Below, in pieces: positions 1 to 53,360 of a stretch of 62,414 nt of DNA (position 1 is its first letter; each line of letters starts with the position of its first letter). Origin of the DNA: Minisyncoccota bacterium (lineage in GTDB: Bacteria; Patescibacteriota; Minisyncoccia; Phycocordibacterales; UBA9973); NCBI GenBank assembly GCA_017991915.1, contig JAGOPQ010000001.1, positions 1-62,414 on the forward strand. The letters are read 5' to 3'. A program made the position numbers and the translations under genes. Below the pieces are notes generated by a model. The model saw only the letters and a list, made by a program, of their open reading frames with translations. It was not told the origin of the DNA and did not search any database.

Positions 1-60
1 CGCGGTGAGAATACTGAGGGTGAGGGCGGAACCCAACACCCAAAACGCAAAGCGGGGCAT
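1..60 (-). CDS. 5' end of a GC-rich hypothetical ORF running off the left edge (MPRFAFWVLGSALTLSILTA..., signal-peptide/TM-like)
   Basis: ATG at 60-58 on the minus strand with AGGAGG (73-68) 7 nt upstream. The segment is much more GC-rich than the adjacent nusA. Only 20 codons are visible. Confidence 0.3.
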   Translation of the reverse strand, partial: MPRFAFWVLGSALTLSILTA

Positions 61-166
61 GGTGTGCCCTCCTGGCAAGGGGTGATTTGGTGTGTCCGAA
101 ATCGAATTGTCCCAGTGTTATCTACTGTCAAGGGACATGTTCTTCGACGTTATTATACCTCGGTTT

Positions 167-7294: not shown

Positions 7295-7732
7295 ATGGCA
7301 GTAAGCAACAGAACCGCAATAAATAAAATAAAATTCAGCCCTGTAGACATTGAGGCTCGCAAAAAGCTTGATTTCAAGGCTGGTGACACCATTCGTGTCT
7401 GGTCAAAAATTCAAGAAGAAAAAGCTTCTAAAAAGGGCGATGGAACCAAGTTCCGATTGCAGGCATTTGAAGGAATGGTTATCGGACGAAAGCACGGATC
7501 TGAGAACGGAGCTACTTTCACTGTTCGCCGAGTGGCTTCTGGTGTGGGCGTAGAAAGAATTTTCCCTATATATTCTCCAATGGTAGATAAAATTGAAGTA
7601 ATCAAAAAAGCTAAAGCTCGACGCTCCAAGCTTTACTATGTTCGCGTGAAGGCGGTAAAAGATGTTCGCCGAAAGATGCGTTCTGTGACTGCAGAACCAG
7701 AAGCTGAAGTAGAAACTCCAGCAGCAGAATAA
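7295..7732 (+). CDS. rplS: 50S ribosomal protein L19
   Basis: [11 protein letters not shown]...FTVRR...[11 protein letters not shown] is typical of L19. Confidence 0.95.
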
Positions 7733-7760
7733 TCTGATATAATCTCTCTGTGCAATACAA

Positions 7761-7847
7761 GCCCAGGTGGCGAAACTGGTAGACGTACTACCTTGAGGTG
7801 GTAGCGCCCGCAAGGGCTTGGGAGTTCGAGTCTCCCCCTGGGCACCA
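7761..7847 (+). tRNA. tRNA-Leu (anticodon GAG), class II with long variable arm, CCA encoded
   Basis: Acceptor GCCCAGG/CCTGGGC, anticodon loop TTGAGGT, T arm GGGAG-TTCGAGT-CTCCC, 3' ACCA. Confidence 0.9.
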
Positions 7848-7858
7848 GCAAAAACAAT

Positions 7859-7879
7859 CCGGCTACTGCCGGTTTTTTT
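7859..7879 (+). terminator. Intrinsic terminator after tRNA-Leu
   Basis: CCGGC-TACT-GCCGG hairpin followed by T7. Confidence 0.75.
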
Positions 7880-7904
7880 GTGGGTGGGGAGACGAGAAAG
7901 GCGG

Positions 7905-7963
7905 AGGCGCGACGGCGCCGAGCCGGGGTCGAGCAAATTTTCAGCAGAAAATTATGCGTGACC
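7905..7963 (+). repeat. tRNA-downstream GC-rich structured element, copy 1
   Basis: About 85% identical to 53287-53350. It has two hairpins (GGCGC-GACG-GCGCC and AATTTTC-AGCA-GAAAATT), and both show compensatory changes in the other copy. Confidence 0.75.
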
Positions 7964-7994
7964 GAGTCTCTCCTTTATGTGTTAAAATTCACCA

Positions 7995-8549
7995 ATGAAA
8001 CAGAAACTAAAGATAAACAAGAAGAAGTTGCGAAAGATTTCTCCTTCCAAAAACTTTTTCTTATCACTAGCTAGCTCCATCATATACCAACAAATTTCCA
8101 CTAAAGCTGGAAATGCTATTTACGCTAAATTTATAGCACTATATGGTAAGAAAAAACCCAACCCTCAAGATTTTCTCAATTTTTCAATTGCTGATTTGAA
8201 GTCTGCTGGAATTTCTCCACAAAAATCAGGGTATTTGAATGACTTATCTCTGAAGTTTTTAGATAAAACCATAAACCAAAAAGGTTTTCATAAAATGTCT
8301 GATGAAGAAGTCAAAGAACATTTGCTCCAAGTCAAAGGTATCGGTCCGTGGACTGCAGATATGTTTTTAATCTTTGCCCTAAACAGAAAAGATATTTTGC
8401 CGGTAGGGGATCTGGGCACCAAGAAAGGATTTCAGAAAGCTTTTAAGTTGAAAAATCTTCCAGACGAAAAACAAATGTTGAAACTAGCCGAGCCTCACAA
8501 CGGCGAGCGCACTATTTTAACCTTATATCTTTGGGATATTTTAGACTAA
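7995..8549 (+). CDS. HhH-GPD DNA glycosylase (3-methyladenine DNA glycosylase II / AlkA-like)
   Basis: Helix-hairpin-helix motif LLQVKGIGPWTADMFLIF followed by PVGDLG (catalytic Asp). Confidence 0.8.
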   Translation: MKQKLKINKKKLRKISPSKNFFLSLASSIIYQQISTKAGNAIYAKFIALYGKKKPNPQDFLNFSIADLKSAGISPQKSGYLNDLSLKFLDKTINQKGFHKMSDEEVKEHLLQVKGIGPWTADMFLIFALNRKDILPVGDLGTKKGFQKAFKLKNLPDEKQMLKLAEPHNGERTILTLYLWDILD

Positions 8550-20816: not shown

Positions 20817-20866
20817 TGGAGTTATGCTAACATAATATATAGACAAAGGCAAGAATTTGTATGAGT

Positions 20867-21140
20867 CCCGTACGAAATCCCATATGTTTTATACTTACAT
20901 ATTAAAAAGTAAAAAAGATGGTAAACTGTATACAGGATATACGAATAATTTACGGAAACGCTTTTCTGAACACAATTCTGGCAAGTCTACGTATACAAAA
21001 GGTAGGGGTCCATATGAGTTAATTTATTATGAAGCGTGTCTTGAGGAACAAGATGCGCGGTCGAGAGAAGTTTATTTTAAATCGGGGCGAGGTAAGCGTT
21101 TTATTAAATCACGCTTAAAGCGTTTCCTATTTCGTACGGG
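20867..21140 (+). mobile_element. Miniature cassette carrying a GIY-YIG nuclease gene, with 12-bp perfect terminal inverted repeats and a flanking 6-bp direct repeat
   Basis: CCCGTACGAAAT at 20867-20878 and ATTTCGTACGGG at 21129-21140. ATGAGT occurs at 20861-20866 and at 21141-21146. Confidence 0.6.
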
Positions 21141-21144
21141 ATGA
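20884..21144 (+). CDS. GIY-YIG nuclease family protein (UPF0213/YhbQ-like)
   Basis: FYTYIL...LYTGYTNNL..R..EHN motif. The stop TGA overlaps the ATG of the next gene. Confidence 0.88.
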   Translation: MFYTYILKSKKDGKLYTGYTNNLRKRFSEHNSGKSTYTKGRGPYELIYYEACLEEQDARSREVYFKSGRGKRFIKSRLKRFLFRTG

Positions 21145-22815: not shown

Positions 22816-24963
22816 ATGGAAAGAGACTATCCTTTAGAAAAAGTTCGAAACATTGGAATTATTGCGCACATCGATGCTGGTAAAACTACCACCACTGAAC
22901 GTGTGCTTTTTTATACTGGAGTATCCCACAAGATCGGTGAAGTGCACGATGGAGAAACCACTACCGACTGGATGGAGCAAGAACGAGAACGCGGAATCAC
23001 TATTACTTCTGCGGCAGTTACTTGTTTCTGGACTCCGACTTACGACCTTAAAAACAAAGCTTTAAAACACCGCTTTAACATCATCGATACCCCTGGACAC
23101 ATCGACTTTACCGTAGAGGTGAAGCGTTCTCTTCGCGTACTCGACGGTGCAGTGGTGGTATTTGACGGTGTGGCTGGAGTAGAACCACAATCCGAAACAA
23201 ACTGGAGATACGCCGACGAAGCAAAGGTGCCTCGCGTATGTTTCATCAACAAGCTAGACCGAACTGGTGCATCTTTTGAGCACTCCTTCGCAACAATCCT
23301 AGACAGACTAAACAAGAGTGCAGTGAGAATGCAAATTCCTATTGGCCTTGAAGAAAACTTTGAAGGAGTAGTAGATGTTTTGAAAATGAAGGCTTACTAC
23401 TTTGAAGGTGAGATGGGTAACACTGTTTTAGAAAAAGAAATTCCTGAAAATATGTTGGCTGATGCGCAAAAATATCACGGCATGCTTATCGAAAAGATTG
23501 TCGAGACTGATGATGTCATGATGACTGAATACTTGGATGGAGTAATTCCAAACGTTGATTCACTAAAGAAAGCTCTACGTAAAGCAGTTATTGCAAACCA
23601 AATCTTTCCAGTCTTTGCTGGTTCAGCATTGAAAAACAAAGGTGTACAGCTAGTACTCGACGCGGTGGTTGATTATCTTCCATCTCCATTAGACATCCCA
23701 CCTATCCCTGGAGTAAATCCTGATACAGATGAAGTTATGGTTCGTCATGCTGACGACAAGGAGCCTTTCTCTGCACTTGCTTTCAAGGTGGCTACTGACC
23801 CATTCGTAGGACAGATTATTTTCTTCCGTGTTTATTCTGGAAGTTTGACTGCTGGAAGTTATATTTACAATCCTCGAACTCGAAACAAAGAAAGAATCGG
23901 ACGTATCTTGCGTATGCATGCGAACGACCGAGAAGAAGTGAAGCAAGTTTATGCTGGAGAAATTGCTGCAGCGGTGGGACTAAAAGACACCATCACTTCA
24001 GATACTATCTGCGATGAAAATAGTCCAATAGAATTAAACCGAATCGTTTTCCCTGAACCTGTTATCAACCTTCGAATAGAACCAAAGACCAAAGCTGACC
24101 AAGAAAAAATGGGTATGGCTTTGAACAGACTTGCTCAAGAAGACCCTACTTTCAAAGTTACTACTGACCAAGAAACTGGCGAGACTATCATCGCTGGAAT
24201 GGGAGAGCTACACCTTGAAATCATCGTGGATCGTATGAAGCGAGAGTTCGCAGTGGAAGCTAACGTTGGTAAACCACAAGTGGCTTACCGAGAAACTATC
24301 AATGGTAACTCTGATGCAGAAGGTAAGTACATCAAGCAGTCTGGAGGACGCGGAAACTACGGTCACGTGAAGATCAAGGTCAAGCCGATGGCAATGTTGA
24401 CCAAAGAAGAAGTGGAAGACCTACCAAGGAATACCAAGCGCTCTGAAGGATTTGAATTCATCAACAGCATCAAAGGAGGTGTCATTCCTCAAGAATACAT
24501 CGCTCCTTGTGAAAAAGGATTCAAGGAAGGTTTGGATCGCGGAATTTTGGCTGGATTCAAGATGGTGAATGTTTCTGTAGAACTCTGGGACGGAAGTTAC
24601 CACGAAGTGGACTCAAACGAAATGGCTTTCAAGATCGCAGCTTCTATGGCTATCCAAGATGCATGTAAGCGTGCAAACCCTGTCATCCTAGAACCGATGA
24701 TGAAGGTGGAAGTAGTTACTCCTGAGAAATTCATGGGAGACGTTACTGGAAACTTGTCATCCAAGCGTGGACTTATCGAAGGCATGGAAGATGTGGGTAT
24801 GAACAAAGTTTTGAAAGCTATCGTGCCTCTATCTGAAATGTTCGGATACATGACCGGTCTACGTTCTATGACTGAAGGCCGTGCGTCATTCACAATGGAA
24901 TTCCTAAGATACGATATAGTGCCAAACAACGTAGCGGAAACTATCATCGCGGCAAGAAAATAA
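22816..24963 (+). CDS. fusA: Elongation factor G
   Basis: [18 protein letters not shown]1 motif, DTPGH; 715 aa. Confidence 0.98.
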
Positions 24964-24985
24964 AACCAATACATAAGACACAAAA

Positions 24986-25007
24986 AGCCCTAGAAATAGG
25001 GTTTTTT
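24986..25007 (+). terminator. Intrinsic terminator after fusA
   Basis: CCCTA-GAAA-TAGGG hairpin followed by T6. Confidence 0.7.
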
Positions 25008-25024
25008 GCTGTGTATGGAAGCTA

Positions 25025-25053
25025 TTGACTTTTGTCCTTAAAAGTGCTATTAT
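25025..25053 (+). promoter_or_regulatory. Sigma-70-type promoter driving islet 1 (TTGACT-17-TATTAT with TGC extension)
   Basis: TTGACT 25025-25030 and TATTAT 25048-25053. Confidence 0.6.
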
Positions 25054-25104
25054 ATATAGATATAGTCCGATGGCAATTCCGCCATCCATACAAGGAGATT
25101 TGCC

Positions 25105-25374
25105 GTGTTTTATACGATGATGAAGGCCGAAGTACACGTTCACCAATTCCGCGGGGTGACTGATCTCGGGTTCATGCACAAAGTCCTTCAGGCGGTCGCG
25201 GACTGCCAGAAGGTGAGCCAAAGGAGTGTTCGGATCGTTGAGGTCCCGGCCCTCCCCAATCAGTCGAACTTCGATGTTGAAGTCGACGTGTATGCGGCTG
25301 ATATTTACGGAGAAATGCCGCAATTCAAGGCACTCGAAGTCTTGTTTGCCAAGACTGCCGACGAAATTATCTAG
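25105..25374 (+). CDS. Hypothetical protein, islet 1 (89 aa)
   Basis: GTG start with AAGGAG (25092-25097) 7 nt upstream; G/C-ending codons. No family recognised. Confidence 0.55.
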   Translation: MFYTMMKAEVHVHQFRGVTDLGFMHKVLQAVADCQKVSQRSVRIVEVPALPNQSNFDVEVDVYAADIYGEMPQFKALEVLFAKTADEII

Positions 25375-25568
25375 CGTCGGAGCATATCGGGCTGATGGCA
25401 ATTCCGCCGTCAGCCCATCGAAACCTTAACAAGGAGGATGAAAATCTTACTAGTTAGGGTTTTTATCGTTTTAGGCCAAACTAAAAAACACCAACGGCGA
25501 TGTTGCTGTTGATGCTTTGGTTCTTGCCCGACCCGCGTGTGCGGCAATCGGGGCTTGCGATGTGGCCA

Positions 25569-25832
25569 CTACCAGTAGCGGCGGCTAGCTCTTGAGGAGG
25601 CGAAGAGTTCCTCCGAACGAGCCTCGGACGCCCTGATGGCATCCAGAGCTTTCTGGCGGAGTACTTCAGACTCCTTCGAGCGACGAGCTAGAAGTTCATG
25701 CACTGTGATGCCGAGAGCTTCGGCTGCGCGTGCGTTTTCTTCTCGGCGAGTAAGCTTGTGATCACGCTTCTTCTTGCTTGCCCGTACTTGGTTGGGCGTG
25801 GACATGTGAGCTTTGTTCTGAGCATGCCTCAT
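25569..25832 (-). CDS. Hypothetical basic protein, islet 1 (87 aa; possible HTH ...AAEALGITVHELLARR...)
   Basis: ATG 25832 with GGAG 10 nt upstream; a GTG at 25862 is an alternative. GC3-skewed. Confidence 0.5.
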   Translation of the reverse strand: MRHAQNKAHMSTPNQVRASKKKRDHKLTRREENARAAEALGITVHELLARRSKESEVLRQKALDAIRASEARSEELFASSRASRRYW

Positions 25833-25846
25833 GAGCAGTACTCCGG

Positions 25847-26155
25847 TTAGAGAGGGTGCCACGGGAACGGAACATCACCAAGTGCATCTTCCACGTCGCG
25901 AGTGAGGCGTTCCTGCCGTTCTTCCTCGAGGCGTTCGAGGCGACGTTCCTCACGATCGATGTCGGCCTTGCGCTTTTCGGCAAAGGCGAGACGTTCTCCT
26001 CGACTGCGCTTGTTGATCTTGATGACCTTCTCGCAGGGCACTCCCAGCCCGTCGGCCTTGGTGGCGATAGTGATCCTCTTGACCATATCGGCCTTTTGGC
26101 GTTGGAGGGCAATCATCTGGTGATTCTTCACGGTGACCTCGTTGTTGGGGTACAC
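25847..26155 (-). CDS. Hypothetical charged/coiled-coil protein, islet 1 (102 aa)
   Basis: GTG 26155. Strong G/C bias at codon position 3 in this frame only; the other overlapping frames look like antisense artefacts. Confidence 0.55.
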   Translation of the reverse strand: MYPNNEVTVKNHQMIALQRQKADMVKRITIATKADGLGVPCEKVIKINKRSRGERLAFAEKRKADIDREERRLERLEEERQERLTRDVEDALGDVPFPWHPL

Positions 26156-26191
26156 TACTTTCGTAGATTAGACTATCACTAGTTTGTATAT

Positions 26192-26219
26192 TTGACAATG
26201 TTTTAAAATCTGCTAACAT
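26192..26219 (+). promoter_or_regulatory. Promoter restarting tuf (TTGACA-16-TAACAT, TGC extension)
   Basis: TTGACA 26192-26197 and TAACAT 26214-26219. A hairpin plus T-run at 26226-26246 starts at the predicted +1. Confidence 0.55.
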
Positions 26220-26371
26220 AGTAGCAACTGCACTTTTGCGGTTTTTCTATTGCTAATTTTTCAAAAAAGCTAGTAAATAGACCTTTATTAAGTTATTAAT
26301 ATCGTTAGTAATTAAGCCTTAGCGACTGGTTCTCGTACGTTAAGTTTTAACTATTAGCACAATATAATTAT

Positions 26372-27565
26372 ATGGCAGAAGAATTTAAGAGAGATAAGCC
26401 GCACGTTAACGTCGGCACCATCGGTCACGTTGACCATGGAAAAACTACATTAACAGCAGCTATCCTCCATGTGTTAAACATGGCTGGAAAGACAGTTCGT
26501 CTAAAGGATGTTAGTCAAATCGACAACGCTCCTGAAGAAAAGGCTCGTGGTATTACTATCAACATCTCCCACAACGAGTACGCTACTGACGCTCGTCACT
26601 ACGCACACATCGACGCTCCAGGACACGCTGACTACATCAAGAACATGATTACTGGTGCCGCTCAAATGGACGGTGCTATTCTGGTGGTTGCCGCTACTGA
26701 CGGTGCGATGCCACAAACTCGTGAGCACGTTTTGCTTGCGAAGCAAGTTGGTGTTCCAAAGATCATCGTTTTCCTAAACAAATGCGACATGGTTGATGAT
26801 AAAGACATGATCGACCTAGTTGAAGAAGAAATCCGTGAATTGCTTACAAAACAAGGCTTTGATGGCGCTGGCGCTCCGGTTATCCGTGGTTCAGCTCTTA
26901 AAGCTCTTGAATCAGCTTCAGCCGACGACGAGTGGGCAAAGAAGGTTCTTGAACTTACCAACGCGCTTGATACCTATATTCCTGTCCCAGAACGAGATAT
27001 TACAAAACCTTTCCTTATGCCTGTTGAAGACATATTCTCTATCGAAGGCCGTGGAACAGTTGTAACAGGAAAGATTGAAAGAGGAGTAGTAAAGGTAGGA
27101 GAAGAAATTGAAATCGTTGGAATCAAGGCTACTCAAAAGTCTACAGTTACTGGTATTGAAATGTTCAACAAGAACCTTCAAGAAGGTATGGCTGGAGACA
27201 ACGCTGGAATTCTTCTACGAGGTCTTAAGAAAGAAGACATCACTCGTGGTCAAGTTCTATGTAAGCCAGGAACAACTACTCCACACGACAATTTCACAGC
27301 TGAAATCTATGTTTTGAAGAAGGAAGAAGGTGGACGTCACACTCCATTCTTCAAGGGTTACAAGCCTCAATTCTACATCCGAACTACGGACGTGACTGGA
27401 GATGTTACTCTTGCTGAAGGTACTGAGATGGTTATGCCAGGAGACACAACCAAGATTACTGTTAAACTGGTCACCCCAGTAGCGCTTGAGGAGTCTCAGA
27501 AGTTCGCTATTCGTGAAGGAGGCAAGACTGTCGGCGCCGGAGTTGTTACTAAGATCCTAGGCTAA
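26372..27565 (+). CDS. tuf: Elongation factor Tu
   Basis: [18 protein letters not shown] and NKCD motifs; 397 aa. Confidence 0.99.
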
Positions 27566-30550: not shown

Positions 30551-30575
30551 AAAAGGTCAATTTATTGACTTTTTT
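30551..30575 (+). terminator. Hairpin/T-run after rplB, overlapping the islet-2 promoter -35
   Basis: AAAAGGTCAA-TTTA-TTGACTTTTT. Confidence 0.5.
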
Positions 30576-30593
30576 GTCTTTTTATGCTAGTAT
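30565..30593 (+). promoter_or_regulatory. Promoter driving islet 2 (TTGACT-17-TAGTAT, TGC extension)
   Basis: TTGACT 30565-30570 and TAGTAT 30588-30593. Closely resembles the islet-1 entry promoter. Confidence 0.55.
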
Positions 30594-30644
30594 ATATATT
30601 AGTAAGCAGTACATCGTCATTTACCCAAGCCTTCGGGAGAGGCT

Positions 30645-30878
30645 ATGTCTCGCATTACTGACAAGTATTGTGGCAATTGCAAGAAAACCAAGCCCCACTT
30701 TGACAATCGGTGCGTCGAATGCCGTCCACCAAGGTGGAATGCAGGCGAAGACAAAGATGTGAATTGTTCCCCCGTAGTTCGCACAGGGCGATGTGGTGAA
30801 CATGGCCGACGTGTTGTCGAGCCAGTCGAATTCATCGACGGGAAGAGTCGCGGTGCTGGTGAACATCTGCAGTACTAA
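30645..30878 (+). CDS. Hypothetical zinc-ribbon protein, islet 2 (77 aa)
   Basis: CGNC...CVEC plus further Cys/His; GGGAGAGG SD 2 nt upstream of the ATG. Confidence 0.5.
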   Translation: MSRITDKYCGNCKKTKPHFDNRCVECRPPRWNAGEDKDVNCSPVVRTGRCGEHGRRVVEPVEFIDGKSRGAGEHLQY

Positions 30879-30923
30879 GCATTCTCAGCAGGACCACCTT
30901 TCCACGCAGGGAGAAAAAAAGAG

Positions 30924-31223
30924 ATGAAGCTTAAGATGGCGCCACCGACTTCGCCAACCCGTGAGGCCACTCGCGAAGAGGTGCTATCTCTCACTGAGCG
31001 CGCTCTCAAGCGCCTTGGTGTCCCAAGTCCACGCTGGAAGGCACGTCAGGCCATCGGCAAAGTGGTGTTCCCGCAGAAGTATGGAATGGCAACATTCCAT
31101 GCAGTCTGCCGGGAGTTCCTTGATCGGGGGTACGAAGTTCCCGATTATGAGTCACCCACAATGCTGGAGAGGGTTGTGGAACACATCGCCGAGAACGCAC
31201 CCGAGACAGTGTCCTGGGTGTGA
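30924..31223 (+). CDS. Hypothetical protein, islet 2 (99 aa)
   Basis: GGGAG upstream; an alternative ATG at 30936. GC3-skewed. No family recognised. Confidence 0.5.
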   Translation: MKLKMAPPTSPTREATREEVLSLTERALKRLGVPSPRWKARQAIGKVVFPQKYGMATFHAVCREFLDRGYEVPDYESPTMLERVVEHIAENAPETVSWV

Positions 31224-31282
31224 GGTCTCAATGGCTGACCGATAGGTTCGCCACGTGACGAAAGTCACAAACATCAAAGACG

Positions 31283-31318
31283 GGGGTAGCCAATATCGGT
31301 TACCCCTTTCATCGTTTT
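31283..31318 (+). terminator. Intrinsic terminator closing islet 2
   Basis: GGGGTAGCC-AATATC-GGTTACCCC hairpin followed by TTTCATCGTTTT. Confidence 0.65.
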
Positions 31319-31320
31319 AT

Positions 31321-31348
31321 TTGACATTCGCCCTGAATTTGCTAGTAT
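31321..31348 (+). promoter_or_regulatory. Promoter restarting rpsS (TTGACA-16-TAGTAT, TGC extension)
   Basis: TTGACA 31321-31326 and TAGTAT 31343-31348. A hairpin plus T-run at 31355-31380 starts at the predicted +1. Confidence 0.55.
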
Positions 31349-31389
31349 GTTGTGAGGCTCAATCGAGAGCCTTTTGTTTACTTTATTTT

Positions 31390-53188: not shown

Positions 53189-53263
53189 CCCGTCCTTAGC
53201 TCAGTTGGTTAGAGCACAGAGCTTATACCTCTGGGGTCCTTGGTTCGAATCCAAGAGGACGGA
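53189..53263 (+). tRNA. tRNA-Ile with anticodon TAT (UAU)
   Basis: Acceptor CCGTCCT/AGGACGG, D arm GCTC-AGTTGGTTA-GAGC, anticodon stem CAGAG/CTCTG with loop CTTATAC, T arm CTTGG-TTCGAAT-CCAAG. No encoded CCA. Confidence 0.85.
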
Positions 53264-53284
53264 CAAGTAGTGACCTACTTGTCC
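53261..53284 (+). terminator. Perfect 10-bp hairpin overlapping the tRNA-Ile 3' end
   Basis: GGACAAGTAG-TGAC-CTACTTGTCC, with no T-run. It could be a processing or termination signal. Confidence 0.4.
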
Positions 53285-53286
53285 GT

Positions 53287-53350
53287 AGGCGCAGGCACGA
53301 CGGTGCCGAGCCGGGGTCGCGCAAAATTTCAGCAGAAATTTATGTGTGAC
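53287..53350 (+). repeat. tRNA-downstream GC-rich structured element, copy 2
   Basis: Matches 7905-7963. Its hairpins are GGCAC-GACG-GTGCC and AAATTTC-AGCA-GAAATTT. Confidence 0.75.
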
Positions 53351-53360
53351 GGACAAAAAG

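Follow-up and report, generated by a model that had tools for sequence, protein, structure and literature searches.

GC-rich mini-cassettes of putative phage origin in a variable slot between fusA and tuf of a Paceibacteria genome

Results

Three small genes lie in a GC-rich islet between fusA and tuf

The analysed stretch of DNA (62,414 nt, hereafter the window) belongs to a Paceibacteria (CPR) genome. Between fusA and tuf it contains an islet of about 1.2 kb that carries three small genes, named here orf89, orf102 and orf87. The features of the region are:

22816-24963, plus strand: fusA (EF-G), 715-aa ORF, left conserved flank
24986-25007, plus strand: intrinsic terminator after fusA, found by terminator scan (-18.3 kcal/mol, z -4.84)
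25025-25053, plus strand: promoter P_A, TTGACT-17-TG-n-TATTAT, found by promoter scan, with a host-style extended -10
25069-25086, plus strand: 5'-UTR hairpin R1, GATGGC-AATTCC-GCCATC, where the GC-rich foreign DNA starts
25105-25374, plus strand: orf89, an ORFan with a GTG start at 25105 and the Shine-Dalgarno sequence (SD) AAGGAG at 25092-25097, 7 nt upstream
25389-25416, plus strand: hairpin R2, 11-bp stem, core and loop as in R1 (-26.7 kcal/mol, z -4.87)
25457-25561, no strand: ancestral intergenic piece, 105 nt, 90% identical to the relative L088
25569-25832, minus strand: orf87, small basic protein, GGAG before the ATG at 25832
25847-26155, minus strand: orf102, an ORFan located 14 nt upstream of orf87
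26170-26198, minus strand: candidate promoter of orf102 and orf87, TTGTCA-17-TG-a-TAGTCT, inferred by eye and below the scan threshold
26192-26248, plus strand: native tuf promoter, TTGACA-16-TAACAT, with a conserved terminator-like 5' hairpin; host DNA, not cassette
26372-27565, plus strand: tuf (EF-Tu), right conserved flank

The GenBank annotation of orf89 is an 85-aa version (KBC06_00160). For orf102, a 94-aa product that starts from GTG 26131, with GAGG 5 nt upstream, appears more likely than the 102-aa ORF.

The GC content of the window averaged 0.406 (sd 0.053, 200-nt windows). Long tracts with a GC of at least 0.52 in 200-nt windows were found only at 25076-25425 and 25451-26175 (peak 0.615), and at 30626-31325. 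The tract at 25076-26175 was thus the longest and strongest of the window. In 300-nt windows, the GC was 0.50-0.57 across 25150-26199 and 0.36-0.48 in fusA and tuf; the maximum of the whole window, 0.58, fell at 25501-26000. The GC-rich spot at 7651-8000 held only a tRNA-Leu and a short repeat.

The three ORFs had GC contents at codon positions 1, 2 and 3 of.62/.28/.64 (orf89),.68/.36/.69 (orf102) and.62/.49/.57 (orf87), against a host GC3 of about.35-.40, which is coding periodicity with a high GC3. Besides GC3, the GC1 and amino-acid make-up of the cargo were also shifted. An SD preceded all five ORFs of this islet and the islet at rplB–rpsS described below, whereas an SD of at least 4 nt at -18 to -3 was present in 1 of 55 host genes (background 0.15). 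The original prediction of a GC-rich tract with an 89-aa ORF on the plus strand, ORFs of 102 and 87 aa on the minus strand, foreign composition and foreign translation signals was therefore correct in each of these points.

GC-rich intergenic tracts in AT-rich genomes are often RNAs, and several frames are open on both strands in 25569-26219. A large structured non-coding RNA in place of protein genes is nevertheless highly improbable. The three-base periodicity is strong with a low GC2, the SD and start signals are in register, and the predicted proteins are protein-like, with a confident structural model for orf87. Against Rfam covariance models the region had no match at gathering thresholds, and what appeared at E up to 5 was noise.

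The islet junctions recur in other assemblies

The composition changes abruptly at AT-rich, hairpin-rich edges, where de Bruijn graphs can mis-join, so an assembly chimera, or contaminating reads joined into the contig, was considered. Two contigs from other assemblies crossed both islet junctions. The NCBI metagenome contig L001 matched 24081-26225 at 100%, and the Logan contig L002 matched 24823-26345 at 100%. Because these two assemblies cover both junctions, a chimera is unlikely, and the junctions were confirmed as real. Relatives from JGI 3300051786 and SRR30710957 also had GC-rich cargo in the same slots, and the ancestral 105-nt piece sits within the region. The odd 5' tail of L002 would speak for a chimera. 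On balance, a chimeric origin of the islet is extremely improbable.

An ancestral piece lies between two modules

The closest relative, L088, has an identical EF-Tu and about 89-91% nucleotide identity in the flanks. Its homology to the window ends at 24964, comes back at 25457 and again at 26189. Within the piece at 25457-25561 lie a terminator of the minus strand (stem 25489-25495/25508-25514, U-run 25483-25488) and the T-tract that belonged to the old fusA terminator. The two modules on either side of this ancestral piece have separate histories. The islet had been predicted to be a single unit, which was not the case: the 105-nt piece divides module A (about 25062-25456) from module B (25562-26188).

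Module A runs in the order promoter, R1 hairpin, SD, orf89 and R2 hairpin, and is missing from L088. The terminator at 24986-25007 is specific to the window and takes the place of the ancestral stem, which is CCTGCCTGCGCAGGCAGG in L088. P_A is AT-rich like the host, is absent from L088, and is predicted to drive module A. After R2 there is an orphan SD, AAGGAGG, at 25431-25437 without a usable ORF. R2 and this orphan SD look like the truncated end of the module. Module A may be read as part of an operon of foreign, probably phage origin that had a higher GC and used SD; it is truncated after its second hairpin and SD and would have come to sit behind a host-type promoter. The AlphaFold 2 model of orf89 was unusable (pLDDT 51).

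The hairpin of module A is found in phage contigs

The hairpin ATGGC-AATTCC-GCCAT was present at 30 distinct sites in IMG/VR. Where these sites were followed by an SD, an ATG and an ORF of at least 50 aa, eight were on the same strand and one was on the other strand. Several copies directly followed a sigma-70 promoter, and two adjoined terminase genes. Matches to 16-18-mers of R1 in phage contigs lay between a promoter and SD plus ATG, which is the layout of module A; their number was close to the rough chance expectation, by our estimate and not by computation. Homology of the IMG/VR hairpins is argued by orientation and context only, and they may be regarded as putative relatives of R1. If so, the recurrent phage element of promoter, hairpin and SD would be a small candidate RNA motif. 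The pattern of hairpin plus SD had no match in JGI metagenomes, and a covariance model of the hairpin found no additional copies in the window, CPR relatives or viral loci. Literature searches on the hairpin sequence and on CPR and SD found nothing relevant.

Other readings of the hairpins were considered, and the first three were rejected. For an IS200/IS605-like element or PATE around orf89, a Y1 transposase match was absent, the hairpins were off the indel boundaries, and the viral contigs had a single copy. A sigma-54 promoter and a tRNA-arm mimic were both ruled out by eye on spacing and loop size. An N-like antiterminator/boxB system of arginine-rich proteins and hairpins seems doubtful: no boxA-like sequence was read close to the hairpins, which are missing from L088 although the proteins are present there.

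Module B encodes two small proteins on the minus strand

Module B would code for two small proteins on the strand opposite to orf89; it is flanked by a conserved terminator on one side and by the promoter region of tuf on the other. The -35 of its candidate promoter overlaps the tuf -35. The AlphaFold 2 model of orf87 (pLDDT 81.5) has helices at residues 13-40 and 44-85, and orf87 is predicted to be a two-helix hairpin. Searches of the PDB and BFVD with this model gave no match below E=3.8. A weak AmrZ/Arc-like fold match (E 9.7) was not counted as evidence. L088_67 and L088_79, the ORFs at the same place in L088, showed weak similarity to orf87 (composition-corrected z 4.1-4.7), and the three have in common the turn motif LGxTxxxLxA[KR][KR]. 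We suggest that orf87 may be a member of a fast-diverging family of small basic helical hairpins that also fills the slot in L088.

Two small tandem genes 14 nt apart, each with its own SD and one coding for a strongly basic protein, could be a new toxin-antitoxin, addiction or abortive-infection pair that is kept because its loss is costly. RelE/ParE plus RHH-like and HicAB-like pairs, named by eye, are located in the same slot of relatives. However, module B had no match in Pfam, NCBIfam, PHROGs or PADLOC and no structural match, and the L088 ORF pair are paralogues of one helical-hairpin family, not a toxin with an antitoxin. Such a pair is distinctly unlikely. We prefer to regard module B as a horizontally acquired mini-cassette, like module A.

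The cargo proteins are ORFans

Pfam, PHROGs, NCBIfam and PADLOC gave no match for any cargo ORF of the window, L088 or L092, another relative. Searches with the three ORFs against 5.8 billion proteins, and a full phmmer search with orf102 against 1.84 billion representatives, returned self matches only. All three are strict ORFans, as the prediction of no recognisable family had stated. The cassette DNA had no blastn match in phage and plasmid collections, viral-contig scans with orf89, orf102 and an alignment of the basic family gave no match, and PDB sequence searches gave noise only. At E up to 1, none of the cargo ORFs matched a GIY-YIG, HNH, LAGLIDADG or similar nuclease, no integrase or recombinase domain was found in them with Pfam, and no prophage genes were recognised near the islet.

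Three candidates had been proposed for the function of the islet: a homing cassette, a toxin-antitoxin-like pair and a phage-derived module. Family, PDB sequence and fold searches showed no nuclease, recombinase or toxin-antitoxin signature, so the first two remain unsupported guesses. The phage-derived module is the best of the three on the strength of the hairpin layout in phage contigs; a phage homologue in DNA or protein was not found.

The fusA–tuf spacer is a variable slot

The fusA product shared 62-90% amino-acid identity with fusA of 80 CPR genomes. In relatives, the gap between fusA and tuf ranged from 13 nt (L114, an empty site) to more than 3.9 kb. The slot cargo, named by eye, included pyr genes, RelE/ParE-like and HicAB-like pairs, sigma-like genes and ORFans. 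The original prediction had assumed a tight fusA-tuf operon junction, which this range of gaps and cargo contradicts; its proposal to look for an empty site in sister genomes was answered by L114. As the position is a variable slot with different cargo in different relatives, the islet is real but of a fairly ordinary kind.

Host-style bracketing signals were present as predicted, namely the terminator at 24986-25007 and the promoters at 25025-25053 and 26192-26219, both of which carry TG. The latter had been described as an exit promoter of the cassette that restarts tuf. It is instead the native tuf promoter: promoter and leader are conserved in L003, L004 and L088, and the exact pattern occurs in 52 metagenome contigs.

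In place of module B and in the rplB–rpsS slot, L088 has other GC-rich ORFs (0.54-0.61), those in place of module B being small and basic, and its cargo breakpoints lie exactly at the promoter and terminator edges. The flanks of the window, L088 and L092 were 89-92% identical, and their cargo had no DNA similarity. The slot breakpoints of the window against L088 and L092 were 24964/26189 and, at rplB–rpsS, 30616/31312.

Other islets lie at rplB–rpsS and downstream of nusA

Two more islets of this kind had been predicted, and both are real. Their features are:

30617-31311, plus strand: rplB–rpsS islet, GC-rich cargo with SD-led ORFs
30645-30878, plus strand: SD-led, Cys-rich ORF of 77 aa
30924-31223, plus strand: SD-led ORF of 99 aa
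about 31283-31306, plus strand: the islet's own terminator stem
1-166, minus strand: third islet, downstream of nusA, GC 0.52, with TTGACA and AGGAGG, sequence read directly

The rplB–rpsS islet is bordered on the left by a host promoter that is conserved (30565-30593) and on the right by that of rpsS (31321-31348). L088 and L092 carry other GC-rich cargo there; L092 has a third GC-rich allele with an identical right breakpoint. The 99-aa ORF showed marginal similarity to L088_101 (composition-corrected z 3.8). When the window is compared with L088, the cargo's 5'-UTR hairpin and its SD covary. An HNH reading of the Cys-rich 77-aa ORF was rejected for insufficient spacing and the lack of a Pfam match. 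The GC-rich, SD-bearing ORF near nusA runs off the contig start.

Discussion

Origin of the islet

The reading that we favour, at somewhat better than an even chance, is that the region consists of two horizontally acquired mini-cassettes, probably phage-derived, in a variable intergenic slot of a Paceibacteria genome. Foreign DNA would have entered once, by illegitimate recombination, into a non-essential spacer between independently promoted genes. Later, homologous recombination would have exchanged the alleles among strains, with the highly conserved neighbouring genes as its anchors. Host promoters would supply expression, and terminators would insulate the neighbours. This architecture is repeated at rplB–rpsS and nusA, with conserved host promoter and terminator edges around interchangeable GC-rich, SD-bearing ORFan cargo. 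The phage donor, the mode of entry, the exchange, the expression and the function of the cassettes are what we infer from the observed foreign composition and SD, coding periodicity, ORFan status, variable slot with an empty site, conserved edges and phage-type hairpin. Our best guess is that the cargo codes for small phage proteins that bind nucleic acids or have a regulatory role.

A different reading is that the cargo consists of resident fast-evolving host genes, at an arms-race or GC-biased conversion hot spot, and that the islets are old, orthologous and hypervariable. It would account for the GC-rich small ORFs of L088 and L092 within conserved edges of the same slots, for the marginal family-level similarity of orf87 to L088_79 and L088_67 and of the 99-aa ORF to L088_101, and for the covarying hairpin and SD at rplB–rpsS. 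However, the cargo uses SD and the host genes essentially do not, and the shift in GC1 and amino-acid make-up goes beyond GC3. Module A is simply missing in L088 and ends in a truncated hairpin and SD unit, and its hairpin is common to phage contigs. In the allele comparison, no similarity was found for orf89, orf102, the 77-aa rplB–rpsS ORF or the L092 ORF. Resident genes thus seem unlikely.

Some points count against the favoured reading. No donor sequence was present in phage and plasmid collections or viral contigs, as DNA or protein. GC-rich cargo in the same slots of relatives about 10% diverged could mean long residence, against a recent import. Erosion of the GC and SD signals would be expected over such a time.

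The third reading is a selfish site-specific element, of a free-standing homing-endonuclease type or with integron-like capture at a conserved site close to a promoter, that targets conserved-gene junctions. The islets do adjoin the very conserved genes nusA, fusA/tuf and rplB/rpsS, and this adjacency is partly a sampling effect because the window holds mostly informational genes. The recurrent breakpoints are sharp and fall immediately before -35 boxes and at the T-tracts of terminators; L002 has a possible co-conversion tract; and the conserved promoter at rplB–rpsS stands before ORFs that lack promoters, can be exchanged and end in a hairpin each. Against these points, domain searches of the cargo ORFs found no nuclease, integrase or recombinase, the edges as read showed neither a target-site duplication nor an inverted repeat or attC-like core, and the fusA–tuf slot across the clade holds ordinary genes of every kind. 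We consider a selfish element very unlikely.

A bolder form of the acquisition reading, in our view quite improbable, is that the str/S10-type cluster of this lineage provides "expression slots", each a conserved strong promoter followed by a conserved terminator T-tract or the next promoter, that time and again take up and exchange small phage-derived SD-led genes in an integron-like manner, by a new mechanism and without a recognisable integrase. If that were true, the cargo (for example orf89 with its flanking hairpins, and the family of basic helical hairpins) would be a hypervariable phage-interaction module, and the hairpin would be a regulatory RNA element used by diverse phages at the 5' end of operons.

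Likeness to known systems

Phage morons are inserted between genes of conserved modules; they are transcribed independently, with a promoter and a terminator of their own, and often deviate in composition. The islet is similar in being small, bracketed by promoters and terminators, deviant in composition, placed between two genes of a conserved cluster without a role in it, and in having a 5'-UTR hairpin common to phage contigs. It differs in that the recipient is a bacterial chromosome and not a prophage, with no phage genes nearby, and in that the bracketing promoters and terminators are largely host-type or ancestral, not insert-borne.

Free-standing homing endonuclease genes of phages, such as seg and mob of T4, spread by intronless homing with co-conversion of the flanks. 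They too are optional small genes between conserved genes, and L002 possibly has a co-converted flank. In contrast, the islet cargo has no GIY-YIG, HNH or LAGLIDADG motif, and differs between strains instead of being present or absent.

The islets resemble integron cassettes in that a conserved promoter precedes small, mostly promoterless ORFs that are exchangeable and end in hairpins, most clearly at rplB–rpsS. Unlike integrons, there is no integrase recognised among the ORFs near either slot, attI/attC cores (GTTRRRY/RYYYAAC) were not seen at the boundaries when the sequence was read directly, the 3' hairpins read as ordinary GC-rich intrinsic terminators with a T-tract, and there is one allele per genome, not an array. 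Module B resembles type II toxin-antitoxin systems in its two small, adjacent, co-oriented genes and in the toxin-antitoxin-like pairs in the slot of relatives, but it has no family match and the L088 pair are paralogous to each other.

Passages of Lopez-Perez, Martin-Cuadrado & Rodriguez-Valera (2014, PMC4033161) describe replacement flexible genomic islands as having a fixed position, conserved flanks and differing genes, attribute their exchange to homologous recombination in the flanks, and report mostly synonymous substitution peaks at the boundaries of exchanged islands. The window, L088 and L092 likewise have different cargo at the same locus within conserved flanks. The islets differ from such islands in being tiny (0.6-1.2 kb, two or three ORFs of less than 105 aa), in carrying ORFans and not surface-structure genes, and in being compositionally foreign, with foreign translation signals, inside a ribosomal-protein/elongation-factor cluster.

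L002 had 30 differences (23%), mostly synonymous, in the 130 nt before 24823, and 100% identity beyond. The pattern resembles the boundary substitution peaks described in those passages of PMC4033161. The best match of the divergent tail was a distant lineage (86%). The strain of the window had low coverage in the L002 run, where it occurred as 1-2 kb fragments, and the breakpoint may reflect a strain-chimeric contig.

Significance

The islet does not overturn current understanding. The str/S10 genes, commonly regarded as a fixed operon, form several units in Paceibacteria, each with its own promoter, and foreign DNA would use the spacers between these units as landing pads. What sets the cargo apart is that it has retained SD signals and a GC about 15 points above that of a host that does not use SD. 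It could serve as a clean natural marker for DNA flow into ultra-small symbionts, with phages able to interact with CPR as well as non-CPR hosts as a possible source. In Patescibacteria, published screens for horizontal gene transfer list regions with ribosomal-protein genes and tuf as "horizontally acquired" (PMC12455944), and we suggest that islets of the fusA–tuf kind could contribute to such calls.

Composition and translation signals of the fusA–tuf islet

The MAG containing the window is labelled Candidatus Pacebacteria (locus tags KBC06_). In it, 1408 nt separate the fusA stop (24963) from the tuf start (26372). The original prediction placed a GC-rich gene cassette in this gap, and such a tract was found: the GC content of 25076–26175 was 0.50–0.57 in 300-nt windows and peaked at 0.615, and the mean of the window was 0.406 (sd 0.053, 200-nt windows). 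A single comparable tract lies elsewhere in the 62 kb, in the rplB/rpsS gap (30626–31325). The three predicted ORFs, the fusA terminator and the two promoters were all present:

24986–25007, plus strand: fusA terminator (−18.3 kcal/mol, z −4.8)
25025–25053 and 26192–26219, plus strand: extended −10 promoters, both found
25105–25374, plus strand: orf89, GC at codon positions 1/2/3 of.62/.28/.64
25569–25832, minus strand: orf87, GC at codon positions 1/2/3 of.62/.49/.57
25847–26155, minus strand: orf102, GC at codon positions 1/2/3 of.68/.36/.69

The GC3 of host genes is ~.25–.47, typically ~.35, and the islet ORFs are compositionally like true genes of a richer-GC source. Their low GC2 points to coding sequence rather than to structured RNA; Rfam gave no match in the islet region. 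All three ORFs have a Shine-Dalgarno (SD)-like motif at a workable distance upstream, whereas host genes, as predicted, nearly lack one: of 55 host genes of the window, 1 had even a 4-mer SD at −18 to −3, which is below the random background (0.15), and A/T-rich sequence stands before host start codons instead. Both the composition and the translation signals of the cargo are foreign.

The exact orf89 protein is also encoded by two further contigs. The NCBI contig L001 (GCA_020047435.1) is 100% identical to window 24081–26225, and the Logan contig L002 (SRR11088367) is 100% identical to 24823–26345. Both junctions are thus reproduced in other assemblies. Since each contig crosses both edges of the GC-rich tract, and GC-rich cargo occupies the same positions in relatives from separate samples, an assembly chimera is very unlikely.

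Two modules in the islet

The islet was compared with L088 (JGI 3300051786), the closest relative, whose EF-Tu is identical and whose flanking genes are 89–91% identical to those of the window. Homology ends at the fusA stop (24964) and restarts at 26189, immediately upstream of the tuf −35 box. Within the islet, only 25457–25561 has an L088 counterpart (90%). This segment starts with the T-tract of the L088 fusA terminator; it also holds a hairpin and U-run that read as a minus-strand terminator. It divides the islet as follows:

24965–25456, plus strand: module A, with a new terminator stem, promoter, hairpin R1, orf89, hairpin R2 and an orphan SD
25562–26188, minus strand: module B, with orf87 and orf102

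As only the shared segment is common to L088, module A is an insertion absent from that relative. The alignment therefore shows a composite region, not the single-unit cassette originally proposed.

In place of module B, L088 has two different minus-strand ORFs of 79 and 67 aa (GC 0.54 and 0.61). These two ORFs are paralogous, and both resemble orf87 weakly (local-alignment z 4.0–4.7 versus shuffles); orf102 has no counterpart in L088. The AF2 model of orf87 was a confident two-helix hairpin (helices 13–40 and 44–85, pLDDT 81.5), and the motif common to orf87 and the two L088 proteins, A-x-x-L/E-G-[IVL]-T-x-x-x-L-x-A-[KR]-[KR], falls on its predicted turn. These proteins are small basic helical hairpins, and our guess is that they might bind nucleic acid. 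A structural search with the orf87 model gave no significant neighbour, and the orf89 model, made without an alignment, was unusable (pLDDT 51).

The islet ORFs had no match in Pfam, PHROGs, NCBIfam or PADLOC. Word-seeded HMMER against 5.8 billion proteins returned self matches only for all three, and a full phmmer search with orf102 over 1.84 billion cluster representatives returned only orf102 itself. Neither islet DNA nor proteins were matched in phage collections, plasmid collections or IMG/VR. No nuclease, recombinase, toxin or defence activity was supported for the islet. A 95-aa ORF ~4 kb upstream (20857–21144) has host-like GC and, by eye, a GIY-YIG-like N-terminus (FYTYILKSKKDGKLYTGYTN); no link to the islets was established.

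The fusA–tuf spacer across the clade

The promoter before tuf had been read as an exit promoter of the cassette. It is host DNA. Window 26183–26259 (promoter plus terminator-like hairpin ACTGCACTTTTGCGGTTTTT) and the leader 26304–26371 are conserved in L088, in L003 (the closest GTDB relative) and in a further relative, L004. The pattern TGnTAnnAT-N8-CTGCACTTTTGCRGTTTTT retrieved 52 metagenome contigs, almost all with tuf following. This conservation indicated that tuf has its own promoter throughout the clade. The transcription signals at the islet edges are host or ancestral ones.

The spacer is a variable slot in the clade. Among 80 genomes found through fusA, the fusA–tuf gap was 88–3364 nt, or tuf was not within 4 kb; in the 52 promoter-anchored contigs, the distance from the fusA stop to the tuf promoter ranged from ~zero to 3.9 kb. 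The empty state also occurs: in L114 (1930–2175), 13 nt separate the fusA TAG from the tuf −35 box, with no terminator. The predicted insertion into a conserved operon thus held for the position of the islet between fusA and tuf but not for a tight shared junction, given these gaps and the promoter of tuf itself.

Slot cargo in relatives, named by eye from the sequences, included pyrC/D/E/F, RelE/ParE+RHH-like and HicAB-like pairs, sigma-factor-like genes and small ORFans. None resembled the cargo of the window. Measurable gaps of relatives were not clearly GC-richer than their own genomes, the lone outlier being a partial upstream stretch in L109 (0.52 vs 0.43).

Some further variants were seen. 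L142 (4300–4600) has a near-empty site with two terminator-like hairpins only. L004 (6290–8630; also L103, L095, L108, L112 and L135) has arrays of small-gene pairs in the slot, resembling by eye RelB/DinJ+YafQ/RelE, RHH+ParE/RelE and HicA/HicB. In L090 (6914–7309; same contig as L089, with identical S12 and S7), a 131-aa ORF of host-like GC is inserted between rpsG and fusA, where the window has a 63-nt spacer.

The terminator-like hairpin and T-run lie directly after the tuf promoter (26192–26248) and are exact in the 52 contigs, L003, L004 and L088. The rpsS promoter (31321–31375) has the same layout. These hairpins may be 5' stabilisers or attenuators of Paceibacteria translation-gene operons.

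Sister islets at rplB–rpsS and nusA

Both predicted sister islets were found, and the rplB–rpsS slot is polymorphic. Both edges of the slot are 91% conserved in L088: on the left, the promoter (30565–30593) plus 16 nt of 5' UTR; on the right, the rpsS promoter (from 31312). Between them the window has 695 nt, in place of which L088 has 652 nt of another GC-rich sequence, with an 87-aa and a 101-aa ORF. In L092 (Logan SRR30710957) the slot contains a third GC-rich allele, whose right breakpoint is the same and which shares with L088 just the final 80 nt (terminator). The 5' hairpin and SD of the cargo covary between the window and L088, and the 99-aa ORF of the islet is marginally similar to the 101-aa ORF of L088 (z 3.8). 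In L003 (10990–11117), a hairpin lies after rplB, and behind it come a strong SD (AAAGGAGG) and then a basic ORF (MRNKREPKPSGKAKGG...) inside which the locus ends, so SD-led cargo at this junction extends beyond the species of the window.

The third islet (window 1–166, GC 0.52) lies downstream of nusA. Its minus strand has TTGACA, AGGAGG and an SD-led ORF beginning MPRFAFWVLGSALTLSILTA, hydrophobic and signal-peptide-like, that runs off the contig start. The assembly break there may reflect strain variation in the nusA slot.

Hairpins and a possible phage link

Two hairpin copies with the same core and loop flank orf89: GATGGC-AATTCC-GCCATC at 25069 (R1) and a version with an 11-bp stem at 25389 (R2). 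Each is followed by ACAAGGAG(G). The SD behind R2 has no usable start codon, and ancestral sequence starts 20 nt further on. Module A therefore resembles a 3'-truncated piece of an operon made up of hairpin-SD-gene units. The minimum-energy fold of 25060–25110 was not the local hairpin: AUGGCAA (25070–25076) pairs with UUGCCGU (25098–25104) across the SD and GTG start of orf89 (−11.7 kcal/mol, z −1.7), which could be a translation-occluding structure or chance.

The (G)AUGGC-AAUUCC-GCCAU(C) hairpin is not in Rfam. It recurs in the phage contigs L085, L086, L146, L148, L150, L153, L156 and L160, where it stands between a sigma-70-type promoter and the SD and start codon of unrelated genes. Its exact 16-mer ATGGCAATTCCGCCAT was found at 30 separate sites in IMG/VR contigs, a count not far above chance for the collection size by our rough estimate, so strand bias and context carry the phage argument. 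At 8 of the 30 sites, the same strand has an SD, a start codon and an ORF of 50 aa or more within the following 45 nt; 1 site has this arrangement on the opposite strand. In L148, L160, L156 and L086, the hairpin lies a few nt behind a sigma-70-type promoter. In L085 and L086, it heads an operon divergent from terminase-like genes, of which the one in L085 matches a small-terminase PHROG and the one in L086 was named from its sequence. The downstream genes are mutually unrelated except for one pair, and none is related to orf89. The phage contigs range in GC from 0.35 to 0.62, and in several the outer stem is lengthened by sequences that differ from case to case. One copy per viral locus, and no further copies in CPR loci, were found with a covariance model. 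Taken together, we regard these contexts as moderate evidence for an origin of module A in phage DNA.

Proposed mechanism and known systems

Foreign DNA would enter a spacer between independently transcribed genes. Host-type promoters would drive the cargo, namely that at 25025–25053 and a candidate minus-strand promoter (TTGTCA-17-TGaTAGTCT, 26198–26170). The terminators at 25483–25514 and 24986–25007 would prevent it from disturbing fusA and tuf. Homologous recombination, anchored in the conserved genes on either side, would then carry alleles from strain to strain.

L002 seems to fit this exchange step. From 24823 onward it matches the window exactly, but the 130 nt before differ by 23%, mostly synonymously; the best match of this divergent tail is a distant lineage. 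A boundary pattern like this is described for exchanged replacement islands in PMC4033161. L002 may instead be a chimeric low-coverage contig, as the strain of the window is itself in SRR11088367 as 1–2 kb fragments.

Among known concepts, a miniature replacement flexible genomic islet that also has moron-like features comes closest. Integron cassettes have an integrase and attC sites, homing-endonuclease genes a nuclease, and toxin-antitoxin systems recognisable domains, whereas none of these was found in the islet. Three points are notable: SD-led, GC-rich cargo contrasts with an SD-less host, such islets recur at several gene junctions within the translation-gene cluster, and a hairpin is shared with phage contigs. 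In a groundwater Patescibacteria study, ribosomal proteins and tuf were among 'horizontally acquired' regions (PMC12455944); islets of this type may contribute to that result.

A 67-nt GC-rich repeat with no Rfam match also occurs in the window (7899–7965 and 53287–53353; copies 88% identical), ~25–50 nt downstream of tRNA-Leu(gag) (7761–7847) and tRNA-Ile(tat) (53190–53264).
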